From contig DAOSZO010000001.1 in the NCBI GenBank assembly GCA_035382085.1, forward strand, positions 4,488 through 68,487: a stretch of DNA of 64,000 bases, in the 5' to 3' direction. Made by a program: the position numbers and the translations under genes. Shown piece after piece: positions 2,573 to 56,510 of this stretch (within the stretch, counting starts at the first letter, position 1; each line of letters begins with the position of its first letter). Below the pieces are notes generated by a model, which had not been told where the DNA came from, did no database searches, and was given only the letters and a program-made list of their open reading frames with translations. This DNA is from Smithella sp. GTDB taxonomy: Bacteria > Desulfobacterota > Syntrophia > Syntrophales > Smithellaceae.

Positions 2573-4510
2573 TCATCTGATGTCAAGCTTTTGATCACGC
2601 TTGATAAAAATAAGATTTTTCACCATAGATTCATGTTTCTGCAATTCCAGGGCCGCTCTCTGGAAGTTTTTTATCTCCTTCGGATCAATCGTCGAATCGA
2701 TGTTCTTTTCTTTTGTCTCTAGAGTGAAGGTCGAGTGGCGGAAACTGTATTTTTCCTCAAGCTTTTTAAAAGGCGTTTTAAATTCAAAATCCTTGGGCAA
2801 TCTTTTGATTCGAAAACCGGGAGGAAAAATATAGGCGATCTTTTCAACGGACAGGAATGATTCCTTCAATTCCACCGGATAAATCCGCTGTGTTGCGGCC
2901 GTAATGTCCTTATACGTGTCATAGGATACCACCCCGGATAACAGGATGGTTTCATCGTCGAGGACCTGTGCCGCATTTTTGAAGAAACCCGTGAGTCGGA
3001 TGACGAAGGGTTCTTCCGTTTCCGAAAAGCTTCCGATATCGAGCCGATCGACTTCAATACCGACTTTTTCAAAAAATTTTTTTCGTTGTTCGGGAGAAGA
3101 GTATTTAAAATAATAACGCGCCGATTCCGCCGATTTGCCGAAATAACGGTAAGTGAAGTTGACGGTGGCATGACCGTCGGTGTTGATGGTGTACTGCATA
3201 TCCTGAACATAATAATCTTTCTTGTCGTCAATGGGGGGAGTTTCGATGAACTGGTAAGCGCCATCCGGTTTGATCAGGAAAACCTTCGTGGGAAAAAGAA
3301 AAGGCGGCGAATCAAAAGCAGCGGTTTCGTTGGTGGCGTCCAGCCACAGGTATCTGTTTTTTTGCGTAGCCACGGCAATGATGTGGTTGAAGACTTTCAG
3401 AGAAGGTGTTCCTTCATCAAAATATTTGCCATTGGAGGGCACCAGCGCCGGCATGGCGTCGATCCCCGCGATTTTCAGCATGGTAAGCAGCAGGACAGTC
3501 TTGTCCTTGCAATCGCCGTACCTTTTCCGGAATATTTCTGTGGCCGAATGCGGTACGTGGGTGTGCGGTCCCAACAGGACGGCGATATAGCGGACATTTT
3601 GGGAAACAAACTTGAAAATGGCGTTGATTTTTTCTTCATCGGTTGATTTCCCTTCAATGAGCTTCTGGGTGAAGGATTCCAATTCCGGATCCGACGTCAT
3701 TTTTTCCCGCACCAGCTTGGCATACCATTGGGAAATCGTTTCCCATCGATCAAGCGTCCAGATAGAAATCTGGGGGAACGTATTTTTGTCCCACAAAGAA
3801 GGCATTCTGGATTCGGGAATGATCTCCTTCTGTTTTCTGTTGATGAAAACGTATTTTTTCTTGCGGTTGCCTGCCGTGGAAATCTCTGGCACAATATCCG
3901 TATTGAAATTCTTCATCTTCAACTCCAAGCTTCTGGGCAGGACGATTTCCAAAATATCTTCCTCGATGGGATAAAGGTTGCGGCAGAAAAATGTTTCAGA
4001 ATAATCCAGGGACAAAATGGGTTTTAAGTTTCTTATTTCGTAGGCGTATTCGATGACGCAATTGTCTTCTACGGCAGGCATGGTGAATTTTTTGACTTTG
4101 ATATCCGTGTAAAATTGATAGCCGGCATACTCGGCAGTATCGTAGATATCATTTTTGTTCAAGGGCACAACCTGGCCGTCCGGCTTGATGGTGTTGGCGA
4201 AAAGAACATCAACCTCCTGGTAACCTTCGCGATAGGAAATCGAAACGGTGGCGAAGTTGCGTCCCCGTTCATTGAATATTTTCATCCGATGAATATTCCG
4301 GTTTACGCTGGTTCCGTCATCATGGAGTTCAACATAAGAGTAGGAAAACAAAAGATCCGCTCCCGCATTGGGATGGTCTTGGGCTTGGGGTGTCTGTTCA
4401 AGGAAAGAACGGACATCCTCCTGCGTGATGCTTCGGAGGTAGGGGTGAGAGGTCGTGCAGGAAGAAGTAAAAATAATCACTAATAAAAGAAAATATTTGA
4501 AAAAGCGCAT
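2573..4510 (-). CDS. Transglutaminase-like lipoprotein (DUF3857/transglutaminase-core architecture)
   Basis: Lipoprotein-type signal (LLLVIIFTSSC). Transglutaminase-core Cys motif RYGDCKDKTVLLLTMLKIAGIDA. 645 aa. Confidence 0.6.
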   Translation of the reverse strand: MRFFKYFLLLVIIFTSSCTTSHPYLRSITQEDVRSFLEQTPQAQDHPNAGADLLFSYSYVELHDDGTSVNRNIHRMKIFNERGRNFATVSISYREGYQEVDVLFANTIKPDGQVVPLNKNDIYDTAEYAGYQFYTDIKVKKFTMPAVEDNCVIEYAYEIRNLKPILSLDYSETFFCRNLYPIEEDILEIVLPRSLELKMKNFNTDIVPEISTAGNRKKKYVFINRKQKEIIPESRMPSLWDKNTFPQISIWTLDRWETISQWYAKLVREKMTSDPELESFTQKLIEGKSTDEEKINAIFKFVSQNVRYIAVLLGPHTHVPHSATEIFRKRYGDCKDKTVLLLTMLKIAGIDAMPALVPSNGKYFDEGTPSLKVFNHIIAVATQKNRYLWLDATNETAAFDSPPFLFPTKVFLIKPDGAYQFIETPPIDDKKDYYVQDMQYTINTDGHATVNFTYRYFGKSAESARYYFKYSSPEQRKKFFEKVGIEVDRLDIGSFSETEEPFVIRLTGFFKNAAQVLDDETILLSGVVSYDTYKDITAATQRIYPVELKESFLSVEKIAYIFPPGFRIKRLPKDFEFKTPFKKLEEKYSFRHSTFTLETKEKNIDSTIDPKEIKNFQRAALELQKHESMVKNLIFIKRDQKLDIR

Positions 4511-49434: not shown

Positions 49435-49611
49435 TTACTGCGACTGCTGATCTTTTTTTACTGCCTCTTCAATTTCATTGTCTTTGATGGACATGTCACG
49501 GGAGTAATCCGGGCAGCGGACACATCCCTGCGAATCCGTCACCACGCTAAAACGCTTCTGGCAATTGACCCGCCAAGCACAAATCGCACAATATTTTTTT
49601 TCTGAACTCAT
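49435..49611 (-). CDS. 58-aa Cys-rich protein (not in ORF track)
   Basis: Hand translation gives MSSEKKYCAICAWRVNCQKRFSVVTDSQGCVRCPDYSRDMSIKDNEIEEAVKKDQQSQ*. RBS AAGGA is 8 nt upstream. There is a consensus-like promoter upstream and a terminator downstream. Confidence 0.6.
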   Translation of the reverse strand: MSSEKKYCAICAWRVNCQKRFSVVTDSQGCVRCPDYSRDMSIKDNEIEEAVKKDQQSQ

Positions 49612-53050: not shown

Positions 53051-53527
53051 TTACAATTCCCCCTGCTGTGTGTCAGCCTGCGTAGGCGGAGGCGCCATGC
53101 CGATGGAAATTTTTGTTTCCGAATTATAAGCGGTGTCTCTTCCGGTAATCAAAGCTTCATAAACCATAGACGCAGAGTTAAGACTTTCATACGGAAAGAC
53201 GACTTGTCTTTCCGTATTGAAAACCTGTGCCAGATAGGCAAGCGTCGGGTCATTTACGGGATCTACTTGAATGGGTTTATTGGTATTGAGCGCATAGGGA
53301 TTCCCCAAGTCTATCGAGGCAAAGACGGCATGCGCGCCGGCTTCGGCGGCTGAAAAAGCCTTACGTTCGGCGACCATCCGGGAACTGATCATCAAATCTT
53401 CTGAAATCATAGTCAGAGCAAAAAAACCGATCGCGGTCAGCACAACAACCGCCATCAATGCCACAATAAAGACAAACCCACCTTCCGACTTTTGCTTTTT
53501 TTGGATTAAATCAAGGACATAACACAT
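53051..53527 (-). CDS. pilX: PilX-like minor pilin/pilus assembly protein (PilX_N type)
   Basis: N-terminal GGFVFIVALMAVVVLTAIGFFAL hydrophobic segment without Glu5. Its position between pilW and pilY1 is as in fimU-pilVWXY1 operons. Confidence 0.6.
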   Translation of the reverse strand: MCYVLDLIQKKQKSEGGFVFIVALMAVVVLTAIGFFALTMISEDLMISSRMVAERKAFSAAEAGAHAVFASIDLGNPYALNTNKPIQVDPVNDPTLAYLAQVFNTERQVVFPYESLNSASMVYEALITGRDTAYNSETKISIGMAPPPTQADTQQGEL

Positions 53528-54206
53528 GATTTTTCACCAACACGTCTGTTGTATATGTCATTCGTCTCACCTTCTGTGTCATGCTGTCTGGGTTTTTCGT
53601 GTCTGCGACAATATTGATGCGAACGCGGCGAATGCTGGGGATTAAAGCTGCCGGCACGTCGCCCGATGCGTCAGCGAGATTGTTACCGTCGCGGTCGAAA
53701 TATTGAAACAAAGGAAGTTTTGCGCTTGCATTCCTGACATTCGTTTCCGTGTCGGTTCCGCCGAGCATCGGCTGGAAATTACCGCAACTCACGCTTCTTC
53801 TGATCGTGTCGTTCTCATATCTATAGACGATGTATTCATTATCCGATGCGCTATTGGCAATAGATTTGGAATTGTCCAAATCCATTGCTATGGCGATTTC
53901 ATTGGCCGCGGCTTTTTGAATGCCCTTATGGTCTGGCGTCAGCGTGATTTCTTTGCAGTTTCCGTCCTTTGCCATTGTCCATGTGGCCTTGGTCATGCCG
54001 GGATTATAAGATGCCATTCGAATCTCCATCGTCATAATATCAAGAACGGTTCTCGCGTCCTGTTGCGTGACAACTTTTCGCCCCACACTGGCTGAAGATT
54101 TCTGCGCGGCATTCATGGCGGCATAGATGACCGTGATGATCAAAGCGCCGACACCCAGTGCGATCACCAATTCCACCAAAGTAAACCCGTTTCTTTTTAA
54201 AGCCAT
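53511..54206 (-). CDS. pilW: PilW-like type IV minor pilin
   Basis: Prepilin motif KRNGFTLVELVIALGVGALI from the ATG at 54206. The track's extension to 54368 overlaps pilV. Confidence 0.65.
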   Translation of the reverse strand: MALKRNGFTLVELVIALGVGALIITVIYAAMNAAQKSSASVGRKVVTQQDARTVLDIMTMEIRMASYNPGMTKATWTMAKDGNCKEITLTPDHKGIQKAAANEIAIAMDLDNSKSIANSASDNEYIVYRYENDTIRRSVSCGNFQPMLGGTDTETNVRNASAKLPLFQYFDRDGNNLADASGDVPAALIPSIRRVRINIVADTKNPDSMTQKVRRMTYTTDVLVKNHVLCP

Positions 54207-54208
54207 CT

Positions 54209-54625
54209 TCAGAATTTCTCCTGTCGAGAAACTATCATGCTGCTTCCAACGCCTTTTTTGCTTCCCGGCCACGTTACTTTCACATTCAAAAGCGTCGTGT
54301 TTTGCGGAAGAGTGGCGGGATTGCTCGCTGCAATAAAAATGGAATAAACCGCCGACGGGTCCTTGCAATCCACGCTGTTTCCGTCATTGTCCAAACAGCT
54401 TTTTGAGTCGGATGGAACATTTCCTGTCATAATCAGGTATTCGTTTGTTTCCATCTCCCGCTGCAGAATTGCCGCCGCGCGGCCCAAATAATCGGCTTTG
54501 CCAGCTCCCTGCCATGCAAGAGGCTGCATGTTGATTAGGGTAAAGATGGCGATGGTGGTCAGAAACAGAGCAATAATACATTCCATGATTGTCAGTCCCG
54601 CTTCTTTATTTGAGCTTCTCTTCAC
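54209..54625 (-). CDS. pilV: PilV-like type IV minor pilin
   Basis: Prepilin-type N-terminus KEAGLTIMECIIALFLTTIAIF (G, then Glu at +5). 138 aa. Confidence 0.6.
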   Translation of the reverse strand: MKRSSNKEAGLTIMECIIALFLTTIAIFTLINMQPLAWQGAGKADYLGRAAAILQREMETNEYLIMTGNVPSDSKSCLDNDGNSVDCKDPSAVYSIFIAASNPATLPQNTTLLNVKVTWPGSKKGVGSSMIVSRQEKF

Positions 54626-55055
54626 TTCTGATCCTCCCGGTTTGACCGCAAATAATGCGGATTTCCGAACCCCGGTCGTTCTGTAATACGATGGTCCCCA
54701 TTGAAGAGGTGCCCCTGGGCTGGAAGTTAATCGTGTTGCCGGAAAAATTATGCTGTTTGATTTTTATTCCTTCGCCGTACTGGTTTAAAAATTTTGGGGA
54801 GCCGTTCTGAAGGGTGTAGGAATCCTCATTATTGATCGTAATGGTATAGGCCACGCCTTCTGACATGGCTTTTTGCTTGGCCAATTTTATATCCGACATC
54901 AAAGCGCCCGCCGCTTCCTTCAGATTTCTGTTTCTGGCGAAAGATGAAAACATGGAGTTGGCAACCACCAGCAAAATTGCGATGACGCTCAAAACAATCA
55001 AAATTTCAATAAGAGTAAATCCTTTTTCGTTTGTTCTGCCGGATAATTCAAACAT
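54606..55055 (-). CDS. FimT/FimU (GspH-domain)-like type IV minor pilin
   Basis: Prepilin motif EKGFTLIEILIVLSVIAIL from the ATG at 55055, followed by a GspH-like beta domain. Confidence 0.65.
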   Translation of the reverse strand: MFELSGRTNEKGFTLIEILIVLSVIAILLVVANSMFSSFARNRNLKEAAGALMSDIKLAKQKAMSEGVAYTITINNEDSYTLQNGSPKFLNQYGEGIKIKQHNFSGNTINFQPRGTSSMGTIVLQNDRGSEIRIICGQTGRIRSEEKLK

Positions 55056-55057
55056 TG

Positions 55058-55819
55058 CTAGTAACTCATTAGAAAAATTTTCGTGACGCCATCGCCCCAA
55101 AAGATATAAGCGATAGCCGCCGCTGACAAAAAAGGTCCAAAAGGCACGGCGTATCTCATGTTCTGTTTTTTAATTAAAATTGTCGTCAAACCGACAATCG
55201 CTCCTAAAAGCGAACTGCACAGCAATACAAACAACAACGATTTCCACCCGAAAAACGCGCCTATCATAGCCAAAAGCTTTATGTCGCCGCCGCCCATTCC
55301 CTCTCGCTTGGCGATTAACTCATATAAGACGGCTATCGTAAAAAGAACGCCACCGCCGATCAGCAGGCCAAGCAGCGCCTCCAACCAGTGGATGCGGCAT
55401 ATGAAAACGGCTGCCAAAAAGAACAAAGGTATCCCGGGAAGCGTGATGACATCGGGTATAATTTGATGATCCAAATCAATAAACGTGACAACTAAAAGCG
55501 CTGATACGAACAAAAAATGTGCTAGGAACTTTAAAGTAAAGCCGAATTTTATAAAAAGCATGACGGCCAATACTGCCGTCAGCAATTCAACAACCGAATA
55601 GCGCCAAGAGATTTTTGCGCCGCAATCCCTGCATTTTCCCTTGAGCCACAAATAACTGACAATCGGCAAATTATCGTAAAGACGAAGGGGATGTTGACAG
55701 GCAGGACATCTGGACCCGGGACTGATAATGGAAACTTTCAAAGGGATTCTGTAGATGCAAACATTGAGAAAACTGCCGATTGCCGCTCCGAACACAAAAG
55801 CAAAACTTTCCACAATCAT
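55058..55819 (-). CDS. pilD: Prepilin peptidase / N-methyltransferase (A24 family)
   Basis: FLNVCIYRIP, zinc-binding CPACQH...CRDCG, and active-site regions FIDLDHQIIPD and GMGGGDIKLLAMIG. ATG at 55819 follows GGAGAA. Confidence 0.9.
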   Translation of the reverse strand: MIVESFAFVFGAAIGSFLNVCIYRIPLKVSIISPGSRCPACQHPLRLYDNLPIVSYLWLKGKCRDCGAKISWRYSVVELLTAVLAVMLFIKFGFTLKFLAHFLFVSALLVVTFIDLDHQIIPDVITLPGIPLFFLAAVFICRIHWLEALLGLLIGGGVLFTIAVLYELIAKREGMGGGDIKLLAMIGAFFGWKSLLFVLLCSSLLGAIVGLTTILIKKQNMRYAVPFGPFLSAAAIAYIFWGDGVTKIFLMSY

Positions 55820-55849
55820 GAAAAATTCTCCATCCGTCTTCATTAAAAT

Positions 55850-55990
55850 TTACGGGCGGGCAAAAAGCAGGAATGCTGGACGACTTTAAAAGTTGCCCGG
55901 CGGTTCTGCCACCTTATCTTCCACCCAGAAGACTTAGGTCAGTAACTTTGCGTCCCGTCTTTTCAGATCGGTTTGCCCTTATCAAGCCTG
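55850..55990 (-). promoter_or_regulatory. GEMM-I (c-di-GMP-I class) riboswitch candidate in the pilD operon leader
   Basis: Minus-strand RNA reads AAGGGCAAACCGAUCUGAAAAGACGGGACGCAAAGUUACUGACCUAAGUCUUCUGGGUGGAAGAUAAGGUGGCAGAACCGCCGGGCAA. It carries the GGGCAAAC, GNRA-capped P1 hairpin, GGGACGCAAAG junction, CCUAA receptor and AGGUnGC...ACC blocks of GEMM-I as recalled from V. cholerae Vc2. Confidence 0.7.
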
Positions 55991-56003
55991 TTATTTTTTG
56001 GCG

Positions 56004-56032
56004 ATTTAAATAAAAATATTCTTTAAAGTCAA
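56004..56032 (-). promoter_or_regulatory. Sigma70-like promoter upstream of the riboswitch/pilD operon
   Basis: Minus strand: TTGACT (56032-56027), a 17-nt spacer, then TTAAAT (56009-56004). It sits about 20 nt upstream of the aptamer. Confidence 0.45.
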
Positions 56033-56054
56033 GCACTATTATTCATGACGGGAT

Positions 56055-56510
56055 TTATCCGTCCTTTCTTGACCAATCATATTGGATGGAGCTCTTGTGG
56101 GCGTCCAGACGATATTCATCCGGTTTTTCGTAATTATAAACTTCCGTTGGGATATTGATGACCAAAGCCTCTTCTTCAGAGATGCATTTGAACCCGTGGT
56201 AAACCAACGCCGGAATGTGCACCAAAACCGGATTGTAAACGCCGGCGAAAATTTCATTGATCTCTCCGTAAGTCGGCGATTTCCTGCGCCCATCAAACAA
56301 AACGATTTTCATCATTCCTTTCACCACGGTCATATTGTCGGCCTGTTTTTTGTGGTAATGCCAGGCTTTGACGACTCCCGGGTAAGCCGTCGTCATGTAA
56401 ACCTGGCCGAATTTTTCAAATATCTCGTCGTCGGCACGCAGAATTTCCATCAAGCGACCCCGTTCATCGGGAATCACCTTCAGTTTTTTTACCGTCACGC
56501 CATTAATCAT
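56055..56510 (-). CDS. Short dTDP-4-dehydrorhamnose 3,5-epimerase-like cupin (RmlC-related sugar epimerase)
   Basis: IPDERGRLMEILR...VYMTTAYPGVVKAWHYHKKQ...HIPALVYHGF pattern. 151 aa. Confidence 0.65.
   Translation of the reverse strand: MINGVTVKKLKVIPDERGRLMEILRADDEIFEKFGQVYMTTAYPGVVKAWHYHKKQADNMTVVKGMMKIVLFDGRRKSPTYGEINEIFAGVYNPVLVHIPALVYHGFKCISEEEALVINIPTEVYNYEKPDEYRLDAHKSSIQYDWSRKDG

Follow-up and report, generated by a model that had tools for sequence, protein, structure and literature searches.

A candidate class I c-di-GMP riboswitch in the leader of a pilD, minor-pilin and pilY1 operon of Smithella sp.

The leader of a type IV pilus operon of Smithella sp. contains, at 55987-55895 on the minus strand of the window (the 64,000 nt stretch of DNA analysed here), a sequence that is almost certainly a member of the class I c-di-GMP (GEMM-I) riboswitch family. 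It lies between a promoter and pilD, ahead of four minor-pilin genes and pilY1. Our preferred reading, to which we assign a probability of roughly 0.6, is that it is a functional c-di-GMP riboswitch in this leader and works as an ON switch of the terminator type.

Results

Identification and fold of the aptamer

A covariance scan of the whole window with Rfam 15 at gathering thresholds returned two matches, a tRNA (37447-37376) and c-di-GMP-I (RF01051). With a score of 63.5 bits (gathering score 35; E = 4e-10 over the whole window), the RF01051 match runs from 55987 to 55896 (minus strand) and takes in model positions 1-87 of 87. No other member of its Rfam clan scores as high here. When 55700-56150 was scanned permissively, no match to c-di-GMP-II (RF01786) came up even at E <= 10, nor anything notable besides c-di-GMP-I. 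The first-pass annotation of this DNA had named a GEMM-I aptamer from the letters and proposed a covariance-model search as the check; the assignment is borne out, and the RNA string it quoted is found at 55986-55892 on the minus strand.

GEMM RNAs have a P1 hairpin with 2-bp and 6-bp stems, a 3-nt internal loop and a GNRA loop, followed by an AAA linker and a P2 hairpin (PMC1950547). In the match to RF01051, the P1 hairpin of the window is made up of GC/GC and CCG-UCU[GAAA]AGA-CGG with an internal loop of 3 nt. Both hairpins described in the annotation belong to this fold: the first, CCG-A-UCU[GAAA]AGA-CGG, corresponds to the Rfam P1 hairpin and the second, GUCUUC[UGGGUG]GAAGAU, to the P2 tip, and the CCUAAG seen there as a bulge is one half of the tetraloop receptor. 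At the level of sequence, the GAAA tetraloop and the P2 receptor (CCUAAG ... AUAAGG) are both present, and the canonical UAUGG occurs in L171. A further helix, the outer helix P1, lies outside the Rfam model; a U-to-C change in L083 and L103 makes a G-C pair from a G.U pair there. The coordinates of these and all other features are given in Table 1.

The alignment of 16 aptamers was fitted to the covariance model, and 95% of the cells in its helices form standard pairs, with nine of the 22 pairs changed on both sides. These values for pairing and compensation were reached by none of 500 shuffles, and slid registers gave only 36-47% pairing. Compensatory changes across lineages point to purifying selection on the aptamer fold.

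Table 1. Features of the pilus operon and its leader in the window
Feature	Position	Strand	Basis or remark
-35 box TTGACT	56027..56032	-	CTTGAC(T/A) invariant at the same place
-10-like box TTAAAT	56004..56009	-	17 nt past the -35 box; same distance kept in relatives
c-di-GMP-I (GEMM-I) aptamer including outer helix P1	55895..55987	-	RF01051 and covariance model R1
Outer helix P1	GCUUG 55987-55983 / CGGGC 55899-55895	-	outside the Rfam model
Vc2 G20 equivalent	G55977	-	directly 5' of the Rfam P1 hairpin
Rfam P1 hairpin	55950..55976	-	2-bp stem, internal loop, 6-bp stem, GAAA tetraloop 55964-55961; RF01051 consensus alignment
AAA linker	55949-55947	-	includes the A47 equivalent
P2 hairpin	55902..55947	-	receptor halves CCUAAG 55938-55933 and AUAAGG 55917-55912; matches the GEMM description (PMC1950547)
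C92 equivalent	55900..55900	-	pairs with one ligand guanine; role from PMC6140456
Switching (competing) hairpin	55866..55910	-	unconstrained MFE, -15.7 kcal/mol; comparison of 12 leaders
Switching hairpin, GGCAG/CUGCU	55910-06 / 55870-66	-	pairs in the window
Switching hairpin, GC/GC	55901-00 / 55876-75	-	C55900 (C92 equivalent) with G55876
Switching hairpin, GGGC/GUCC	55898-95 / 55881-78	-	pairs in the window
Switching hairpin tip, ACUU/AAGU	55893-90 / 55886-83	-	pairs in the window
U5 tract	55862..55866	-	candidate intrinsic-terminator tail, directly 3' of the switching hairpin
Shine-Dalgarno GGAG and pilD start codon	55817..55831	-	GGAG 55831-55828, ATG 55819-55817; homologue N-termini
pilD, prepilin peptidase/N-methyltransferase, family A24	55058..55819	-	Pfam A24_N_bact 4e-36, Peptidase_A24 1e-24
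GspH/FimU-like minor pilin	ORF 55100-54606	-	G/FTLIE motif; Pfam
PilV-like minor pilin	54625-54209	-	G/LTIME motif
PilW-like minor pilin	ORF 54368-53511	-	likely start 54206; G/FTLVE motif
PilX-like protein	53527-53051	-	Pfam PilX_N
pilY1, 881 aa	53045-50400	-	Pfam T4P_PilY1 4.5e-17; VWA MIDAS motif DLSGS and PilY1 propeller
Secreted ORF, 232 aa	50400-49702	-	signal peptide; one-base overlap with pilY1

Ligand contacts

The numbering of Vc2, the V. cholerae example of this type, was transferred to model columns by our own reading of the Vc2 sequence, and with the mapping so taken, the RF01051 consensus alignment places the equivalents of G20, A47 and C92 at G55977, A55949 and C55900. In Vc2, G20 reads the Hoogsteen edge of one c-di-GMP guanine and C92 pairs with the other, and a change of G20 to A defines the cGAMP-sensing GEMM-Ib class (PMC6140456). 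The window has G, not A, at this position (G55977). Among the 15 aptamers that cover it (column 11), G is found in 14, the sole exception being an A in L169; apart from that A, the contact positions are invariant across the orthologues, and the GCCGGG tail is the same in 16/16 aptamers. Since the equivalents of G20, A47 and C92 are all retained, c-di-GMP is the most likely ligand, and on these nucleotides we consider it very probable. The earlier choice of c-di-GMP over cGAMP, made from the G at the Vc2-G20 position, is supported, and the contacts known from Vc2 at A47 and C92 agree with it (PMC6140456).

The L169 aptamer (2335-2421), with its A at the Vc2-G20 position, carries the GEMM-Ib/cGAMP signature; its P1 is weakened (UCUUA) and its score of 59.6 bits is the lowest. 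By its sequence it would represent either a change in ligand specificity or decay.

Promoter and leader boundaries

The CTTGAC(T/A) of the -35 region does not vary in 11 related leaders, unlike the spacer, and a -10-like hexamer follows 16-18 nt later, as TATAAT (L171, L173) or TAAAAT (L170, L172); TAGAAT also occurs. The distance from the -10 box to the start of the aptamer is 13-17 nt across the leaders and 17 nt in the window, and transcription would start near 55997. The window promoter escaped a generic promoter scan, its -10 box having no A at position 2. The promoter read in the first-pass annotation (TTGACT, 17 nt, TTAAAT) is present and conserved in placement, except that the aptamer begins 17 nt past the -10 box and not about 20 nt.

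The same annotation had given a gap of 210 nt upstream of pilD, which needs correcting: pilD starts at ATG 55819, not at 55843, so the distance to the upstream gene is about 235 nt. PilD homologues with 100% and 89% identity have a length of 253 aa and the N-termini MIVESFAF and MFLE, and GGAG is located 8 nt before the ATG. The promoter (56032-56004) and the pilD ATG (55819) are on the same strand, a 5' regulatory layout common to 12 relatives.

Three further elements were seen around the leader. A palindrome, GACGGATAAATCCCGTC (window 56047-56063), shares positions with the stop codon of the cupin gene that precedes the leader; since no U-tail follows it on the minus strand, transcripts of the genes upstream could run on into the riboswitch leader. 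A 12-bp, wobble-rich hairpin, AGAAUUUUUCAU / GUGGAAAGUUUU (55829-55802), covers the end of the Shine-Dalgarno sequence, the AUG and codons 2-8 of pilD; it appears whether or not the aptamer fold is enforced, and recurs in L161. In L001 (6778-6793), L081 and L082, loci that lack the two sugar genes found upstream in the window, the -35 box is preceded at about 9 nt by the end of a TGTGA-N6-TCACA palindrome of the CRP/FNR-type consensus; the window has no such site.

The downstream operon and its neighbourhood

Pfam matches and prepilin motifs agree with the gene content given in the first-pass annotation, i.e., pilD, minor pilins and PilY1. The minor-pilin block, defined as 53051..55100 (minus strand), shows the Pfam domains N_methyl, GspH and PilX_N. 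The nearest PilD proteins in public data are labelled Smithella sp., and the best species-representative genome is a Smithellaceae MAG. In L170-L173, PilY1 is a single protein of 1062-1341 aa, compared with the 881 aa and the separate 232-aa ORF of the window; these two may represent a split gene, or the ORF may be a separate accessory gene.

Beyond the operon lie argS, a gene for a SPOR-domain protein, and ffh. A 58-aa cysteine-rich ORF (49435-49611, minus strand) sits between the pilus operon and argS and has its own TTGACA-type promoter. Upstream, on the same strand, are genes for a nucleotidyl-transferase and a cupin/sugar-epimerase-like protein, and ribD is divergent. In window 1-37285, a Pfam survey of the 20 ORFs that reach 220 aa found only housekeeping genes, with no GGDEF/EAL protein and no further pil gene.

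A predicted switching hairpin built from the aptamer

Two blocks downstream of the aptamer, GUCCAGCA (55881-55874) and CUGC(U) (55870-55866), stand out in 12 leaders as conserved against a diverging background. A hairpin that joins them to the 3' part of the aptamer is found in the unconstrained MFE of 12/12 leaders with the block, at -14 to -20 kcal/mol. Because the 3' strands of P2 and P1 and the C92 equivalent are all taken up in its pairs, it would exclude the ligand-binding fold. In register, 88% of the cells pair, compared with 28-54% when the strands are slid. Only two pairs truly covary, which is attributable to the 5' arm being fixed by aptamer function. One-sided changes in L173 strengthen the basal helix (GGCAGG/CCUGCC).

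As a terminator the hairpin is imperfect. Its stem is interrupted (5 bp, a 4x4 loop, 2 bp, 1x1, 4 bp, 1x1, 4 bp), and a generic terminator scan did not call it. Such scans cannot discriminate here, because simple hairpin-plus-U sites are not enriched in this genome (22 found versus 23 expected from shuffled sequence). The hairpin is followed by U5 in the window, U7 in L161, U6 in L162 and U4 in L164/L165, but these leaders are close relatives and the U-run is therefore not independent evidence. The other eight of the 12 leaders that keep the hairpin (L163, L169-L173, L001 and L081) have no U-run, CUGCUAUAA... following instead, and so intrinsic termination cannot be the output across the clade.

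A different platform had been suggested in the first-pass annotation, in which CGGGCAA (55899-55893) pairs with UUGCCCG (55863-55857) and a small hairpin, AGCA (55877-55874) / UGCU (55869-55866), precedes U5. All of these elements exist in the window, but they are not conserved in the clade. Of the two pairings, both rejected as the platform, CGGGCAA/UUGCCCG survives in the closest relative (L161) alone, being degraded in L162 and L164, and AGCA/UGCU amounts to just 4 bp, broken in L164/L165 (CAGC). From the modelled folds, the switching element conserved clade-wide appears to be the longer hairpin that uses the aptamer's own 3' half.

The tip and loop of P2, GUCUUCUGGGUGG (55944-55932), are complementary to CCCGCCC...GAAGAC (55860-55836) downstream of the U-run. 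Compared with shuffles, this duplex (-18.5 kcal/mol in the window) is significant only in the window (z = -3.3), L161 (z = -4.3) and L001 (z = -2.9, with a different sequence), and may be a second alternative helix.

Related leaders

A covariance model (R1) was built from the aptamers of the window and L001 and used to search 80 genome loci, 80 metagenome loci and 13 contigs encoding PilD proteins 69-89% identical to that of the window. Besides the window, 15 loci from genomes and metagenomes of Smithellaceae proved to have the aptamer, or 14 distinct ones if the identical L164 and L165 are counted once. The gene order of the window (ribD, transferase, cupin, leader, pilD, minor pilins, PilY1) is shared by L161, L163-L165 and L169-L173, and L162, which starts within the aptamer, shows the downstream half only (pilD, minor pilins, PilY1). 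In the Smithellaceae chromosome L001 this order recurs minus the two sugar genes, and its aptamer scores 76.4 bits with the Rfam model. No aptamer was found beside more distant pilD genes in about 140 other loci, from Desulfobacterales and other groups.

Several relatives depart from this arrangement. In L166 (2276-2501; also in L167 and L168), PilD is 74% identical and synteny and promoter are the same as in the window, and the leader, of about 225 nt, is an unrelated sequence without a GEMM-I aptamer that matched no Rfam family; the riboswitch appears to have been lost or replaced in this lineage. In L103 the aptamer (4112-4201) follows pilD (2980-3756) at a distance of about 355 nt, with about 390 nt more before the first minor-pilin gene, and there it would control the minor pilins and PilY1 but not pilD. 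Such a placement suggests a core target in the minor-pilin/PilY1 module rather than in pilD. In L081 (~600-850), an insertion of about 250 nt with the inverted repeats GTCATTGCGAG ... CTCGCAATGAC separates the switching hairpin from pilD, and looks like a small mobile or repeat element. With the aptamer behind pilD in L103, replaced in L166-L168 and carrying G20A in L169, the clade appears, on sequence, to be evolutionarily labile.

Discussion

Proposed mechanism and alternatives

In the proposed mechanism, transcription of the leader would begin at the TTGACT-17-TTAAAT promoter. As long as no ligand is bound, the downstream GUCC-A-GC...CUGCU would pair with the 3' strands of P2 and P1, C55900 among them, and the hairpin so formed (55910-55866), ending at U5, would destroy the aptamer; in the window lineage it would probably act as an intrinsic terminator at U5. 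With c-di-GMP bound, P1 and P2 would be locked, only a 4-bp remnant could form, and transcription would proceed into pilD, the minor pilins and pilY1, high c-di-GMP thus turning on the module for pilus priming and tip adhesion. Of 322 GEMM instances, 78 have a terminator whose 5' side overlaps with the P2 3' side, an arrangement in which ligand is predicted to raise expression (PMC1950547). The GEMM-Ib RNA of Geobacter metallireducens pilM acts as an ON switch, the C that pairs with the ligand being sequestered in its terminator (PMC9262584), and because the architecture seen here resembles that terminator, the folds tip the balance slightly towards the ON direction. Intrinsic termination as the output is more tentative and on balance doubtful, the step being weakened by the interrupted stem, the lack of a clade-conserved U-run and the absence of enrichment of hairpin-plus-U sites. 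Also weighing against the proposed mechanism are the aptamer-enforced fold, which lies 13.6 kcal/mol above the free MFE, and the sparse covariation of the switching hairpin.

The same aptamer, also as an ON switch, could act on translation. The GAAGAC by the ribosome-binding site (55841-55836) is a look-alike of the P2 3' strand, and the freed P2 5' strand (ACC..GUCUUC) would pair with it and with the GG of GGAG (55831-55830), occluding the site until ligand restored P2. Such an output would explain why the hairpin is kept in leaders without a U-run, and its register (CC with the Shine-Dalgarno GG, GUCUUC with GAAGAC) recurs in the window, L161, L164 and L170; the significant P2-tip/downstream duplexes of the window, L161 and L001 also speak for it, as does L083, where the GGGUGGCAG of P2 is repeated about 20 nt before the start codon. 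However, duplex energies are overall no better than those of shuffles (mean z = -0.75; p 0.04 to 0.9) and only half of the Shine-Dalgarno sequence is covered. Its thermodynamic sequestration was rejected, as the unpaired probability of Shine-Dalgarno and AUG showed no consistent shift between the free and aptamer-enforced folds of 12 leaders. We consider a translational output unlikely. The reverse direction, in which ligand would free the GUCCAGCA..CUGCU block or UUGCCCG for a repressing structure and high c-di-GMP would lower the pilus genes, takes in the scheme of CGGGCAA/UUGCCCG, small hairpin and U5 considered above. Both pairings exist in the window, the AGCA/UGCU hairpin precedes U5 in the aptamer-enforced fold, and OFF-type GEMM-I switches such as Cd1 are known (PMC9262584). 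Against this, the remnant hairpin is only 4 bp and is the one broken in L164/L165, UUGCCCG is conserved only in L161, and no conserved partner of the freed block was found. Moreover, CGGGCAA is the P1 3' strand, so its pairing with UUGCCCG belongs to the ligand-free and not to the bound state. An OFF switch is less likely than an ON switch and, taken by itself, improbable.

The remaining alternatives concern the aptamer. It might sense 3'3'-cGAMP, or both dinucleotides, instead of c-di-GMP alone, given that a single position accounts for most of the difference between GEMM-I and GEMM-Ib, that bispecific members occur in nature (PMC6140456), and that A occupies the G20 position in the L169 leader. 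This is very unlikely for the window: G is present there and in 13 of the 14 other aptamers covering the position, C92 is retained, RF01051 scores best of its clan, and wild-type Vc2, with G20, discriminates against cGAMP (PMC6140456). That the window holds a decaying, non-functional relic could be argued from the complete loss of the aptamer in the syntenic L166-L168 and from the degenerate L169 copy (59.6 bits, weakened P1), but the window copy scores far above threshold, all its contact nucleotides are intact and compensatory changes are seen across lineages, leaving hardly any room for this explanation.

Significance

The cpaA gene encodes an A24 prepilin peptidase. Genes downstream of GEMM RNAs listed by Weinberg et al. 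in 2007 include cpaA, pilM, pilO, pilQ and pulF (PMC1950547). The control of a prepilin peptidase and tip-adhesin operon, described in the first-pass annotation as a notable regulatory wiring, was overstated, as GEMM RNAs ahead of pilus genes and cpaA have been on record since 2007 (PMC1950547) and the Geobacter pilM switch has been studied in detail (PMC9262584). Control of type IV pili by cyclic-dinucleotide riboswitches is established in Geobacter and C. difficile (PMC9262584, PMC6200980). A literature search found no paper linking a c-di-GMP riboswitch to pilD, minor pilins or PilY1, and the specific target set and host clade are therefore new. The aptamer itself is a bona fide member of a well-known riboswitch family, and knowledge of the class is unchanged by it.

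In Pseudomonas, PilY1 and the minor pilins act upstream of c-di-GMP synthesis. A broader reading, which we regard as a long shot, is that of a Smithellaceae-wide riboswitch clade for the pilus-priming module, in which the hairpin works mostly without an intrinsic terminator and c-di-GMP acts upstream of PilY1. If true, the order seen in Pseudomonas would be reversed, and the output would be a GEMM-I mechanism not yet described, e.g., one dependent on Rho, an RNase or a standby site. Little is known of regulation in Smithellaceae, and the leader offers a testable link from c-di-GMP levels to the type IV pilus priming complex and tip adhesin in these uncultured syntrophs. It would extend the range of genes controlled by GEMM-I to pilD, the minor pilins and pilY1, and the 15 orthologous leaders form a graded set in which platform drift can be followed while the aptamer stays fixed.

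Comparison with known riboswitches

With Vc2, the window RNA shares the two-hairpin aptamer, the GAAA tetraloop, the CCUAAG/UAAGG receptor, the AAA linker, the G20, A47 and C92 contacts and the 5' regulatory position; it differs in its Smithellaceae (Syntrophales) host, its target (pilD, minor pilins and pilY1) and its expression platform. In C. difficile, a c-di-GMP-II riboswitch upstream of pilA1 activates type IV pilus genes. That system is likewise a c-di-GMP riboswitch tied to type IV pilus genes (PMC6200980, PMC6366702), but it belongs to an unrelated class, c-di-GMP-II, in a different phylum, and serves the operon of the major pilin.

The GEMM RNAs listed in 2007 (PMC1950547) also control pilus biogenesis genes, and the terminators among them that overlap the 3' side of P2 have a candidate counterpart in the window hairpin, whereas pilD, fimU-pilVWX and pilY1 are not named and the Smithellaceae clade is not described there. 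Similarity to the pilM GEMM-Ib RNA of Geobacter metallireducens (PMC9262584) extends further: it too lies upstream of type IV pilus genes in a former deltaproteobacterium, its competing hairpin is built from the aptamer 3' strands and a downstream strand and sequesters the ligand-pairing C, and aptamer and hairpin are mutually exclusive. The pilM RNA, however, has A at position 20, where the window has G, and its ligand is 3'3'-cGAMP; its targets are pilMNOPQ, as opposed to pilD, minor pilins and pilY1, and the candidate terminator of the window is weak, with a U-run that is not conserved in the clade.
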